Below, one piece after another: positions 12,160 through 62,037 of a stretch of 64,000 nucleotides of DNA (position 1 is its first letter; each line of letters opens with the position of its first letter). The translations under genes were made by a program, and so were the position numbers. Source of the DNA: Escherichia coli (lineage in GTDB: Bacteria > Pseudomonadota > Gammaproteobacteria > Enterobacterales > Enterobacteriaceae); NCBI RefSeq assembly GCF_017348835.2, contig NZ_CP071375.1; one strand, 5' to 3'. Below the pieces are notes generated by a model that searched no databases, was not told where the DNA came from, and saw only the letters and a program-made list of their open reading frames with translations.

Positions 12160-12243
12160 TTATTCAATAAACTGACGGATCAGTTCCAGCAGCGCGATTA
12201 GCGCCTTAAGAACGATGAGAACTTTATCGAGAAAAGTTTTCAT
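12160..12243 (-). CDS. candidate 27-aa hydrophobic peptide (type I toxin-like): MKTFLDKVLIVLKALIALLELIRQFIE
   Basis: ATG at 12243-12241 preceded by GGGAG 6 nt upstream; SD lies in palindrome CTCCCttaaGGGAG (12250-12263); TAA stop followed by GC hairpin ggccgaaggtttaccaccttcggcc; not in ORF track (below 60 aa). Confidence 0.35.
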   Translation of the reverse strand: MKTFLDKVLIVLKALIALLELIRQFIE

Positions 12244-47102: not shown

Positions 47103-48265
47103 TTACGCCTTCTTTATATCCTCCATAATTCCACAGTGGGACATATTTGGGACATGATCACCAAAAATGTCGTCTATTTTCCTTGCATGCTCTGTCAAAT
47201 GATTAGGCGCAAGGTGAGCATACCTACGAACCATTTCTATGGACTCCCATCCGCCCATTTCCTGAAGCACAGATAATGGGACGCCTGACTGGATCAGCCA
47301 GCTTGCCCAGGTGTGTCTGAGGTCATGGAAACGGAAATCTTCAATTCCTGCACGACGACAAGCTGATAGCCATGATGTCTTGCTGTCGATGCGCATCTTC
47401 CTGACCGCAGGCGTTGATGTTCCATCTGCTCGCTTAGCCGCCTTGGTATGTACAAACACCCATTTGTGATGCTTGCCTATTTGATCACGCAACACTTTAC
47501 AGGCGGTATCGTTCAGCGCCACACCAATGGCGCGGTTTGATTTGCTCTCTTCTGGATTCACCCAGGCAACTCGTCGCTGCATGTCGATTTGTTGCCATTC
47601 CAGATTTATGATGTTCGACTTTCTCAGACCAGTTGCCAGCGCAAACTTGACGACAGATTTCAGTGGTTCGGGGCACTCATCAATAAGGCGTTTTGCTTCC
47701 TCCTTTTCCAGCCATCTGACTCGCTTGTTTCTGACCGCTGGTATCTTGATGACAGGCGCTTTTTCCAGCCACTTCCAGTCGCGTTCTGCAGCACGGAGAA
47801 TGGCCTTTATCATGGCAAGATGCTTTGCCTTTGTCTGAGTTGATACTGGCTTTGGTTCATAAACAGGCGGTTCTTTACCTTTCCTGATGGCGGCCTGAAC
47901 TTTCTGTTTCCATATTTCTTTCGTCTTTCTGTTATGCATTCTGCTTACAGCAGAGTAAATCTTTGCCTCCGAGATATCTTTAAGCCTTATACCCTCAAAA
48001 TGTTCAAGCCAGAACTCAATCCGGCTTTTATCTGAATCGAGAGATTTTTATCAGCTTTTTCCTCAAGCCATCTTAGGCAGGCCTCTTCAAAAGTGACATC
48101 AGGTAAATCCCCTAGCTTTTCTACTCGCCAGAGTTCTGCTTTTCGCTTGTCGTGCAACTCCTGAGCTTGCCGCTTGTCCTTTGTGCCAAGAGATTCCTTA
48201 ATTCGTTTCCCGCCCGGGAGCGAATACGAGGCATACCATATTTCATTTCTGCGGAAGAGTGACAT
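47103..48265 (-). pseudogene. intD: tyrosine integrase, reading frame interrupted by a frameshift
   Basis: N-terminal 74 codons ([19 protein letters not shown]..., ORF 47987-48265) and C-terminal catalytic part (ORF 47103-47939, HxxR ... Y) are in different frames; the break is at a 5-nt homopolymer at 48045-48049. Confidence 0.8.
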
Positions 48266-57285: not shown

Positions 57286-58281
57286 GTGAACGTGAGAGCG
57301 CTACTGACCCCCGAGATTGCCCCGCGTATGGGGATCGTATTGTTCAGACCCGGTTCAGAGCTGATGCCCCTGTTTATGCAGGGGCGTGTCCTGCTGGAGC
57401 CTGAGCCGGAACGTTATTCATCTTTTGCCAGTGGTGCCGTTCCGGCTGCATCACAACCGCTGGCGGATGATCCTGCCGTTCGGGCCGTGTTCCGCAATGA
57501 GGCAGTGATCCGTCGTGCTGGTGGCGTGGAATGTCTTGAAAGCTGGTTACTTCGTGAAAAAGGCTGCCAGTGGCCTCATTCCGACTGGCACAGCGAGAAC
57601 ATGACCACAATGCGACACGCGCCGGGCGCAATCCGTCTGTGCTGGCACTGCGATAACCAACTGCGCGATCAGTTCACGGAACGGCTGGAATCAATGGCAA
57701 CGGATAACTGTGCCCGCTGGGTGTTGTCTGTTGTGCGTCGGGATCTCGGTTTTGATGACAGTCACGTTGTGACAATGCCGGAACTGTGCTGGTGGCTGAT
57801 TCGTAATGATCTGGCGGATACCTTACCGGAAAGTGCAGCCCGTAAGGCACTGAGATTACCGAAGCCTTTTGTGCCGTCTGTCACCCGGGAAAGTGACCTG
57901 GTGCCTTCGGTTCCTGCCACCAGCATCATCCAGAATAAAGCGAAAAAGGTGCTGGCGCTGAAAGTGGATCCGGAGTCGCCGGACTCTTTTATGTTACGCC
58001 CAAAACGTCGCCGCTGGGTTAATGAAAAGTACACGCGATGGGTTAAGACGCAGCCGTGCGCATGTTGTGGAAAACCTGCTGATGATCCCCACCACCTGAT
58101 AGGCCACGGTCAGGGTGGAATGGGGACAAAAGCGCATGACCTCTTTGTGTTGCCTTTGTGCAGAAAGCATCACGACGAGCTGCATGCGGATACTGTGGCA
58201 TTCGAAGAGAAGTATGGCTCCCAGCTGGAGCTGATATTTCGTTTTATCGATCGTGCGCTGGCGATTGGTGTGCTGGCCTGA
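57286..58281 (+). CDS. DUF968 (YdfU-like) protein with C-terminal Cys/His cluster
   Basis: 331 aa; [12 protein letters not shown] ... CRKHHDELH. Confidence 0.65.
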
Positions 58282-58298
58282 TTTTGTGGAGAAAGTTG

Positions 58299-58682
58299 AT
58301 GCGTGATATTCAGATGGTTCTTGAGCGTTGGGGAGCGTGGGCGGCTAATAATCATGAAGATGTGACTTGGTCGTCCATTGCCGCCGGTTTTAAGGGATTA
58401 ATTCCTTCAAAAGTAAAATCTCGCCCACAATGTTGTGACGATGACGCGATGATCATTTGCGGGTGCATGGCCCGTCTGAAAAAGAACAACAGCGACTTGC
58501 ACGATTTATTAGTAGATTATTATGTAGTCGGTATGACATTCATGTCACTGGCAGGTAAGCATTGCTGCTCTGATGGTTATATCGGGAAAAGGTTACAGAA
58601 GGCTGAGGGCATAATTGAAGGGATGTTAATGGCATTAGATATCCGGTTAGAGATGGATATCGTTGTTAATAACTCTAATTAA
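58299..58682 (+). CDS. quuD: late-gene antiterminator Q
   Basis: 127 aa from [18 protein letters not shown]; Cys-rich zinc-binding region. Confidence 0.8.
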
Positions 58683-58870
58683 TATGCCAATTGTTTACTA
58701 AAAATTATTAAAAATGGGGCGTTGCAACGCCCCCAAAAATAAAGGGTAATATATAACAGAAGGTTTATATAGTTAGAAGCAAGGTTGTGCTCCTAAAGGA
58801 AGTGGCTTGAGGGAGCCACTTATATGTTGGGGAGGCAAAGCCTCCCGCAACATATCTTTTAGTAATCAAA

Positions 58871-59953
58871 TTAGAACTGGTAAACCATACCTACAGCAAC
58901 GATATCATCGGTAGCAACGCCAGATGCTTTCGTGAAATCGCTCTTATCAATCAGGTTGATTTTGTAATCAACAAAAGTGGACATATTTTTGTTGAAGTAA
59001 TAGGTTGCACCTACATCAATATATTCAACCAGGTCCTGATCACCCCACGCACCCAAGTCTTTTCCTTTAGATTGCAGGTAAGCAACGGACGGACGCAGAC
59101 CGAAGTCGAACTGATATTGTGCAACTACTTCGAAGTTTTGTGCTTTGTTGGCAATATGGTTATTACCAAAAACAGTCATGTTCTGGGTTTCAGAATAGGT
59201 GGTAGCCAGATAGATGTTGTTCGCATCATATTTCAGACCAGCTGCCCATACTTCAGCATTTTGACCAGATGCATTCAGGCTGTTGTTACCGTAGATAACC
59301 TGATTATTAGTGCGGTCAGATTTAGCATAGGTTGCACCTACACCGAATCCTTCATACTCATACGTAGTGGAGAAACCGAAACCATCACCATTAGCTTCAG
59401 TTACGTCAGTGCGGTCATTTTTACCCTGATACTGAGCAGCAAAGTTCAGACCATCAACCAGACCAAAGAAGTCGTTGTTACGATAAGTTGCAACACCAGT
59501 GGTGCGACCAGTCATGAACACATCTGTTTGGGTCCAGGTATCGCCACCGAATTCTGGCAGAACGTCAGTCCACGCACCGATGTCATATGCTACACCGTAG
59601 TTACGGCCGTAATCGATTGAGCCGTAGTCCCCGAATTTCAGGCCTGCAAATGCAAGACGGGTTTTGTCTTTGGAGGAGCCTTGAGATTCAGCGCGGTTGC
59701 CTTTGAATTCATATTCCCACTGACCGAAACCAGTCAGTTGATCGTTGATTTGGGTTTCACCTTTGAAGCCAAGACGGGCATAAGTAGTATCACCATCATC
59801 TGCATCATTAGAGGAGAAGTAGTGCTTGGCATTAACTTTCCCATATAGATCCAGCTTGTTACTGTCTTTATTATAAATTTCAGCTGCCTGAGCAGACATC
59901 GCCATCAGTACTGATGCGGCTACAGCAGAAATTGCCACTGTTAATTTTTTCAT
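58871..59953 (-). CDS. nmpC: prophage-encoded outer membrane porin (OmpC/OmpF family), uninterrupted
   Basis: 360 aa; signal peptide; C-terminal ...VGMVYQF beta-barrel signature. Confidence 0.9.
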
Positions 59954-60541
59954 CGTGAGCCCTTTTTTTTGAACTATTATTAAAAAATGATGTCACTGCG
60001 CGATAAATATTCATCTAATCAATGTGATTATTTCAAGATGTAAGTTTTAGTTTCTCATTTAATTTGTGAGGTAGATCTCTATTTTTATCTGAACTTTTTC
60101 TATCGAAACCTATTTATGGCTCTTATTTGAACAAAAATAAACCTATTAGCTAATTTATATTAATGGCTGTTATTTATGGAGGTTCTATAATTCGGCGGTT
60201 TAATTTAAATCAACTAAAAATAACGGCGGAAATTATTTGTAGGATATTTGTTGAGGTTTTCTTATGTATTTGTGGTGGTGTTTTGAACACTCGGTAGCAT
60301 TCTCATAAATATCATTCAGTGGTTTACGTACGTAAAAAATTGGTTATGCTGTTAAGAGTGGTTACTTCGTCACACAGCTTAAACCCGCCGTCGAGCTGGT
60401 TTTTCCATTTTTTGAGTCTCGATATTAGCTGATAACTCAATACCTGAGTTATTCACTGACTCCGAGTCTGTTACGTTTCTGCTTTTTTGCGATACGTTGT
60501 ATTCCCTCAATTTACACCCGCTTTGTCTGCGAGGTGGGGTT

Positions 60542-60757
60542 ATGAAATCCATGGATAAGTTAACAACGGGTGTCGCCTATGGCACCTCAGCAGGTAGTGC
60601 CGGTTACTGGTTTTTACAGCTGCTCGATAAAGTTACGCCCTCACAGTGGGCAGCAATAGGTGTGCTGGGTAGCCTGGTATTTGGCCTGCTGACGTACCTG
60701 ACAAACCTTTATTTCAAGATTAAAGAAGATAAGCGCAAGGCTGCGAGAGGTGAATAA
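60542..60757 (+). CDS. essD: holin (class II, phage 21 S-like)
   Basis: 71 aa from MKSMDKL; two TM segments; stop overlaps lysozyme ATG. Confidence 0.85.
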
Positions 60758-61254
60758 TGCCTCCATCATTACGAAAAGCCGTTGCTGCTGCTATTGGTGG
60801 CGGAGCAATTGCTATAGCATCAGTGTTAATCACTGGCCCAAGTGGTAACGATGGTCTGGAAGGTGTCAGCTACATACCATACAAAGATATTGTTGGTGTA
60901 TGGACTGTATGTCACGGGCATACAGGAAAAGACATCATGCTCGGTAAAACGTATACCAAAGCAGAATGCAAAGCACTCTTGAATAAAGACCTTGCCACTG
61001 TCGCCAGACAAATTAACCCGTACATCGAAGTCGATATACCGGAAACAACGCGCGGCGCTCTTTACTCATTCGTTTACAACGTGGGTGCTGGCAATTTCAG
61101 AACATCGACGCTTCTTCGCAAAATAAACCAGGGCGATATCAAAGGCGCATGTGATCAGCTACGTCGCTGGACATACGCTGGCGGTAAGCAATGGAAAGGC
61201 CTGATGACTCGCCGTGAGATTGAGCGTGAAATCTGTTTGTGGGGTCAGCAATGA
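60757..61254 (+). CDS. rrrD: phage lysozyme (endolysin)
   Basis: 165 aa; N-terminal SAR-like hydrophobic segment; lysozyme motifs. Confidence 0.88.
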
Positions 61255-61712
61255 ACAGAGTAACCGCGATTATCTCCGCTCTGGTTATCTGCATCATCGT
61301 CTGCCTGTCATGGGCTGTTAATCATTACCGTGATAACGCCATTACCTACAAAGCCCAGCGCGACAAAAATGCCAGAGAACTGAAGCTGGCGAACGCCACC
61401 ATTACTGACATGCAGCAGCGCCAGCGTGATGTTGCTGCACTGGATGAAAAATACACGAAGGAGTTAGCTAATGCGAAAGCTGAAAATGATGCTCTGCGTG
61501 ATGATGTTGCCGCTGGTCGTCGTCGGTTGCACATCAAAGCAGTCTGTCAGTCAGTGCGTGAAGCCACCACCGCCTCCGGCGTGGATAATGCAGCCTCCCC
61601 CCGACTGGCAGACACCGCTGAACGGGATTATTTCACCCTCAGAGAGAGGCTGATCACTATGCAAAAACAACTGGAAGGAACCCAGAAGTATATTAATGAG
61701 CAGTGCAGATAG
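61251..61712 (+). CDS. rzpD: i-spanin (Rz)
   Basis: 153 aa from [18 protein letters not shown]-terminal TM plus coiled coil. Confidence 0.85.
61471..61653 (+). CDS. rzoD: o-spanin lipoprotein (Rz1) embedded in +1 frame of Rz
   Basis: 60 aa; lipobox VVVGC; proline-rich. Confidence 0.8.
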
Positions 61713-61743: not shown

Positions 61744-62037
61744 TTATTGTGAGCAATACACACGCGCTTCCAGCGGAGTATAAATGCCTAAAGTAATAAA
61801 ACCGAGCAATCCATTTACGAATGTTTGCTGGGTTTCTGTTTTAACAACATTTTCTGCGCCGCCACAAATTTTGGCTGCATCAACAGTTTTCTCCTGTCCA
61901 ATTCCCGAAACGAAGAAGTGATGGGTGATGGTTTCCTTTGGTGTTACTGCTGTCGGTTTGTTTCCAACAGTAAACGTCTGTTGAGCACATCCTGTAATAA
62001 GCATTGCCAGAGCGGCAGAAAACAACATTTTTTTCAT
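61744..62037 (-). CDS. borD: Bor-family lipoprotein
   Basis: 97 aa from MKKMLFSAALAMLITGC. Confidence 0.88.
   Translation of the reverse strand: MKKMLFSAALAMLITGCAQQTFTVGNKPTAVTPKETITHHFFVSGIGQEKTVDAAKICGGAENVVKTETQQTFVNGLLGFITLGIYTPLEARVYCSQ

Follow-up and report, generated by a model that had tools for sequence, protein, structure and literature searches.

Descriptions of phage-borne porins of the NmpC/Lc type and of the IpeX RNA date back to the 1980s-2000s, and both the kind of element analyzed here and its allele, which is already present in public phage and genome records, are known. Phage PA-2, whose receptor is OmpC, carries the Lc porin of this group, while nmpC of the prophage DLP12 represents it in E. 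coli K-12. In the literature nmpC is described as the E. coli gene similar to Salmonella ompD (PMC3333887), and its K-12 promoter, PnmpC, was found to be an active sigma-70 promoter which, as seen upon a 199-bp deletion or blocking, drives nmpC/IS5 transcription (PMC11677980). The IpeX RNA of DLP12 is listed with a length of 167 nt (PMC12197685). Both nmpC copies of the UPEC strain CFT073 were expressed as RNA as well as protein, with higher levels at 37 C compared to 23 C (PMC12890032).

The window, i.e. the entire stretch of 64,000 nt of E. coli DNA that was analyzed in this study, contains an uninterrupted porin gene of this type together with conserved flanking elements (Table 1). In our assessment, gene and flanking elements are likely to represent an intact NmpC/Lc-type lysogenic-conversion cassette of a lambdoid prophage at argU.

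Table 1. Positions in the window of the porin gene, its flanking elements and the neighboring prophage genes
Feature	Position	Strand	Basis
quuD, Q-type antiterminator; left neighbor, convergent with the porin gene	58299..58682	+	Phage_antitermQ E=8.5e-54; PE164 annotation
Structured 3' UTR; homologue of the DLP12 and PA-2 ipeX region	58700..58870	-	Identity, fold, length
Intrinsic terminator hairpin GGGGCGTTGCAACGCCCC, followed by a T-run	58716..58733	-	Terminator scan; terminal hairpin of the fold
Porin CDS, NmpC/Lc-type general porin	58871..59953	-	360 codons plus stop; Porin_1, phrog_410, NmpC identity
Equivalent of the K-12 IS5 insertion point, codons Thr341-Lys342	58928..58933	-	K-12 alignment
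Signal peptide, 23 codons, MKK...SAQA, cleavage before AEIYNK	59885..59953	-	PDB chain starts; PA-2/P7 annotation
Promoter-proximal region and 5' UTR (PnmpC equivalent), AT-rich	59954..60160	-	Conservation with K-12 and PA-2
Proximal putative CRP-binding site, center about 119 bp 5' of the ATG	60062..60082	-	PA-2 misc_binding 1363-1383, 1 mismatch
Distal putative CRP-binding site	60357..60377	-	Identical to PA-2 CRP misc_binding 1067-1087
Lysis cassette essD (P21-type holin), rrrD (lysozyme), rzpD/rzoD (Rz/Rz1); right neighbor, divergent from the porin gene	60542..61712	+	Pfam, annotation
essD	60542-60757	+	Pfam, annotation

Prophage setting of the porin gene

The window was chromosomal throughout and exhibited 5 mismatches in 64 kb relative to E. 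coli PE164, a pig isolate. From about 47.1 kb onward it was occupied by a lambdoid prophage located at the tRNA-Arg gene argU, beside the sfm fimbrial operon and fimZ. The gene order was quuD, porin (antisense), essD, rrrD, rzpD/rzoD, a Bor-family lipoprotein gene (opposite strand), ylcI, Nu1 and terminase, and the arrangement around the porin gene was common to DLP12, the temperate phages PhiR34_1 and ev017 as well as the PA-2 fragment. DLP12 of K-12 shares with the window prophage the argU site next to sfm/fimZ and the order quuD, antisense porin, essD-rrrD-rzpD/rzoD, bor, ylcI and nohD, whereas the early region of the window prophage differs. The original prediction, which had been made from the sequence alone, considered the gene to be a prophage porin, and this was borne out by its position, flanked by quuD on one side and essD/rrrD/rzpD on the other, within a lambdoid prophage that, like DLP12, occupies argU. 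PE164, with 99.98% identity across the 25.4 kb in common, has full head and tail genes just past the end of the window.

The prophage integrase gene intD (47103-48265, minus strand) was split into ORFs of 92 and 278 aa and is labeled 'frameshifted; internal stop' in PE164; the prophage is therefore probably unable to excise by itself, even though the matching PE164 genome has the full head and tail genes. A second lysogenic-conversion gene within the prophage late region (61744-62037, minus strand) encodes a Bor-family outer-membrane lipoprotein (Lambda_Bor E=6e-31, phrog_260), which PE164 lists as serum-survival protein Iss. Just 5' of essD, a 16-bp segment was present in the window and in PA-2 and absent in K-12.

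The porin gene is located between the genes for Q and the holin, where late cargo such as stx sits in Stx phages, and this would fit a late/lytic gene of the Q-dependent late operon that is switched on only after induction. Such a role appears very improbable, since the gene lies on the strand opposite to quuD and essD and apparently possesses its own promoter region as well as its own terminator facing quuD. Being antisense to the late operon, it could yield only antisense RNA upon late transcription. Scanning of the plus strand from quuD to essD (58683-58870 and 59954-60541) revealed no consensus sigma-70 promoter and no terminator, and if Q-dependent late transcription starts beside quuD, it must cross ipeX and the whole porin gene in antisense orientation.

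Elsewhere in the window, four small genes were found between cueR and ybbJ (window about 580-2970; PE164 3656157-3658610), among them a gene for a YadA C-terminal domain protein (about 1590-2606). As cueR and ybbJ adjoin each other in K-12, the group between them may represent a small insertion specific to the strain. Between mnmH and ybbP, the annotation includes a dinQ-like type I toxin ORF (window about 12160-12243; PE164 3647249-3647332).

Sequence hallmarks of the encoded porin

According to the ORF list of the window, positions 58871..59953 on the minus strand form a single ATG-to-stop ORF of 360 aa without interruption, exactly as originally predicted, and Pfam Porin_1 (PF00267) matched its translation end to end (profile 1-337/337, E=3.1e-153, 510.6 bits with a cutoff of 23.7). 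The phage protein family phrog_410 was likewise matched end to end (E=1e-224), and the solved porins OmpK37, OmpC, OmpK36, PhoE and OmpF aligned across the whole mature length with E-values from 1e-137 to 1e-116. The N-terminus, consisting of MKK, a hydrophobic core and AQA followed by AEIYNK, was of the standard Sec signal peptide type. The records of PA-2 lc and P7 nmpC both contain a sig_peptide of 69 nt, and the window signal was identical to the former and nearly so to the latter. Further claims of the original prediction, a signal peptide and a C-terminal beta-barrel signature, were also confirmed: the signal comprises 23 residues, equal to the PA-2 lc annotation, and the mature sequence of most matched PDB porin chains starts at query residue 24, while the C-terminus (...VGMVYQF) ends in Y358, Q359 and F360, which were invariant in all aligned porins.

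Across the NmpC alleles and OmpC, OmpF and PhoE, the PEFGGD motif of the constriction loop L3 (P133-D138) was invariant, as were K39, R60 and R150 of the basic ladder, with R99 being nearly invariant; we take K39/R60/R99/R150 to be the equivalents of OmpF K16/R42/R82/R132. A 16-strand beta-barrel fold is very likely in view of the full-length homology to solved 16-strand porins (E~1e-135). The AlphaFold model, a low-confidence model (pLDDT 56) derived from a shallow 10-sequence alignment, displayed 16 main strands. All sequence hallmarks of the family are thus present, and the ORF encodes a classical general porin precursor that is complete.

The protein passed the NCBIfam 'porin OmpC' subfamily model (518 bits, above the cutoff of 484), and it did not reach the NCBIfam equivalogs for PhoE (506 < 599) and OmpF (484 < 583). 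Because the OmpC subfamily model was passed, the gene carries the PGAP name 'ompC: porin OmpC', and taken at face value this name would make it the core OmpC gene of the host instead of phage cargo. We find this scarcely credible, since the NCBIfam model is a subfamily and not an equivalog model, the porin is only 64% identical to K-12 OmpC (b2215), its gene resides inside the late region of a prophage and not beside micF/rcsD, and its product is 100% identical to that of a phage-borne gene. With the chromosomal OmpC, OmpF and PhoE the window porin has in common the fold family, the basic ladder, the PEFGGD loop L3 and the C-terminal YQF, whereas locus and regulation are different. In addition, the Lys of the PhoE motif 'MTKRA', which is the anion-selectivity residue of PhoE, is a Gly in the window porin.

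Phage relatives and allelic variation

On the protein level, the window porin was 100% identical to the porins of PhiR34_1 and PhiR68_2 (PV340559, PV340576), with 2 synonymous nucleotide differences from PhiR34_1. Identities were 94% to phage ev017 and the E. coli B allele, 91% to PA-2 Lc, 84% to NmpC of the P1-type phage P7, and 62-65% to OmpC, OmpF and PhoE of E. coli. OmpD, the name of a Salmonella porin, is used in several phage records. The 'OmpD' porin gene of PhiR34_1/PhiR68_2 and that of the ev099/ev243/ev017 group are embedded in the same order of Q, porin, S-R-Rz, Bor and Nu1. However, PhiR34_1 and PhiR68_2 are free plaque-forming phages, whereas the window copy resides in a prophage with a frameshifted integrase. 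The Lc porin gene of PA-2 (GenBank J02580, protein 2) similarly adjoins lysis genes and is followed by an ipeX-type downstream sequence, but it represents another loop allele, PA-2 Lc being essentially the K-12-type allele.

In a phage collection, 42 records contained a homologue, a number that includes non-cargo cases such as the IS5-split phage 434 and the chromosomal-looking SPF_0923. The Salmonella phage SPF_0923 (ON032529.1) was rejected as a phage example, as the neighbors of its porin homologue (pyruvate-flavodoxin oxidoreductase, uspF and sitA) are of the chromosomal type; the homologue itself is annotated as OmpN precursor and exhibited 65% identity, and the record probably contains host DNA, not a true phage porin. 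In phage P7 (AF503408.1), nmpC with 82-84% identity was found between odaA and ssb, and the presence of the gene in this P1-type phage indicates that porin cargo is not confined to lambdoid phages.

Comparison of six NmpC-type alleles revealed variable columns at 56 of the 114 positions in predicted external loops versus 31 of the 246 elsewhere (odds ratio 6.7, p=3e-13), with loop boundaries that are approximate and were taken from the low-confidence AlphaFold model (pLDDT 56). Variation was mainly observed in L4, L5, L6, L7 and L8, while L3 contained only 3 variable columns out of 37 and the periplasmic turns 0. The gene was a mosaic, with a 5' half that shared about 97-100% identity with the alleles of PA-2, ev017 and B, and with several 3' blocks of 60-80% identity. 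Surface-loop differences of this kind are as expected for a protein that is exposed to phages, colicins and antibodies.

Comparison with nmpC of K-12 and E. coli B

The original prediction had stated that nmpC of K-12 is disrupted by IS5. This agrees with the NC_000913.3 annotation, in which the gene (b0553) is given as two fragments around IS5B, and the alignment of the window to K-12 was interrupted exactly at the IS5B position. Without repair, the K-12 ORF enters IS5 after Lys347 and the last 18 residues, including the terminal strand and the C-terminal Phe, are lost, while removal of IS5 and the 4-bp duplication results in an ORF of 365 aa. The window porin was identical to this rebuilt K-12 NmpC in 329 of 365 positions (90%), with all of the first 148 residues being the same. 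The originally proposed name nmpC is appropriate in so far as the gene belongs to the NmpC/Lc group, as reflected by its identity to the rebuilt NmpC and to PA-2 Lc, but it is an allele other than that of K-12, with a length of 360 versus 365 aa and substitutions as well as indels in loops L4-L8. The likeness to DLP12 extends to the promoter-proximal region (about 97% identity) and the 3' UTR (about 98%). In contrast to the K-12 copy, which is split by IS5B and lacks the terminal strand, the window copy is whole. The IS5 target CTAA (K-12 ACT AAA) is missing in the window, which reads ACG AAA, a synonymous change.

In the B lineage (E. coli C43(DE3)), the DLP12 porin gene was disrupted by IS1, which had produced a 9-bp target duplication; removal of the insertion restored an ORF of 360 aa. 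The two classic laboratory lineages, K-12 (IS5) and B (IS1), have lost the gene independently. The phage 434 record OL657227.1 contains the K-12-type porin gene with the annotation 'IS5 insertion after codon 346', and phage 434 apparently obtained its late region from DLP12 (qsr') of a K-12 host.

Frequency of intact copies in E. coli

The porin CDS was matched in 3,743 of 5,426 complete E. coli genomes, at up to 5 places per genome, and in 2,502 of the 5,426 there was a place that spanned 80% or more of the porin query. The K-12 IS5/nmpC junction was detected in 282 of these genomes. The 141-bp stretch across the IS5 site was uninterrupted in at least 1,518, which is a lower bound, as divergent alleles are missed by megablast. 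Of 60 matching records sampled at even spacing, 34 contained single-piece full-length copies, 5 had copies split by IS5 (K-12 derivatives) and 1 had a copy split by IS1 (B derivative), while 20 exhibited only weak matches to other porins or remnants. The uninterrupted gene is the usual state in E. coli and the IS5-broken K-12 copy is a laboratory-lineage exception. The intactness of the window copy is therefore unremarkable, and published statements of an inactivation of the gene 'in most cases' reflect laboratory strains, not the species.

Promoter region and expression

The last ~200 bp before the ATG carried the identity of about 97% to K-12 mentioned above, and the last 65 bp were identical to PA-2; GC content of the upstream region was about 30%. 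By virtue of this conservation, the porin gene appears to have its own promoter region, in which both of the CRP sites annotated in PA-2 are conserved (Table 1). The consensus promoter scan found no porin promoter; a hand-picked -35/-10 pair (TTGAAA at -83 and GAATAT at -59) is a guess. The frequency of optimal codons (Fop) was 0.72 for the porin gene compared to 0.79 for ompF, 0.52 for phoE and 0.43-0.59 for the neighboring prophage genes. This codon bias, which is high for a prophage gene, suggests selection for expression.

The ORF could be intact but silent under ordinary conditions, e.g. through silencing at the AT-rich upstream region, in which case the envelope would be unaffected. The low upstream GC content, the scan without a consensus promoter and the partly decayed appearance of a prophage with a split integrase all fit such a silent gene, as does the description of nmpC as 'quiescent' in laboratory strains (title of Prilipov 1998, via citing papers). 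We consider it unlikely nonetheless. The quiescence in laboratory strains is explained by IS5 (K-12) and IS1 (B), both of which are absent here, the conserved promoter is active in K-12 (PMC11677980), and the intact copies of CFT073 are expressed at the protein level (PMC12890032). Moreover, the codon bias points to expression and the exact allele is kept in the active phages PhiR34_1 and PhiR68_2.

The 3' UTR and ipeX

The stretch from the porin stop codon to quuD was about 98% identical to K-12 as well as PA-2. Relative to the K-12/PA-2 version, the ipeX region of the window contained 6 substitutions and a 1-nt indel, and differences within the hairpins were confined to loops. The 3' UTR folded into a series of hairpins (-63.2 kcal/mol, z=-9.5), and 0 of 200 shuffles were as good. 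According to the terminator scan and the fold, the porin/ipeX transcript is ended by a terminator before quuD (Table 1). The distance from the stop codon to the terminator tail is about 161-171 nt, which fits the 167-nt IpeX. Castillo-Keller et al., in 2006, reportedly placed ipeX precisely at the interval from the nmpC stop codon to the terminator, and the RNA is said to be identical in PA-2.

A search of positions 58000-61000 against Rfam with a permissive E-value yielded no match; since Rfam contains no IpeX family, this result is neutral for ipeX. The assignment as a putative ipeX rests on homology to K-12 and PA-2, on reviews and on the mapping reported by Castillo-Keller et al. This element, which is linked to the porin gene and by means of which the cassette is reported to lower OmpC and OmpF of the host, was absent from the original prediction. 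The prophage sRNA svsR (PMC12247714) was considered as a related element and rejected as unrelated, as it is encoded at the cI 3' end and acts on lamB.

Proposed function of the cassette

For the likely lysogenic-conversion cassette at argU, we propose, on the basis of the family and the literature, that the lysogen would transcribe the porin gene from a separate sigma-70 promoter which depends on CRP and responds to temperature. For relatives of the cassette, expression in the lysogen and a reduction of OmpC/OmpF are described in the literature. Following export by Sec and cleavage behind Ala23, BAM would assemble the porin into a diffusion pore, a trimer with 16 strands per barrel, while IpeX RNA would be released from the structured 3' UTR of the porin transcript and lower OmpC and OmpF. 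The net outcome would be that host porins are swapped for the one supplied by the phage, with altered permeability and the removal of receptors for other phages and colicins.

A more far-reaching possibility, which we put forward tentatively and would ourselves rather doubt, is that the porin gene and ipeX form a 'porin swap' module that is retained by the host in a non-excising prophage. Loops L4-L8 would be reshuffled by recombination between prophages and provide strain-specific escape from phages, colicins and antibodies that target porins, and convergent Q-dependent late transcription, if begun upstream of the 3' end of the porin gene, would turn off the cassette once the prophage is induced. 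Within this possibility, the loop-focused variation and the mosaicism are the demonstrated parts.

Significance

Beyond the original prediction, the analysis adds the exact allele, the linked ipeX 3' UTR and CRP sites as putative elements, the population frequency and the loop-focused variation. For annotation, the gene is to be regarded as a prophage NmpC/Lc-type porin gene, despite its automatic host-OmpC name. Across the 5,426 complete genomes, intact copies are several times more frequent than the IS5-broken K-12 copy, which corrects a common misconception. Antibiotic permeability may differ in strains that carry such cassettes, as may their sensitivity to phages and colicins that depend on OmpC or OmpF.
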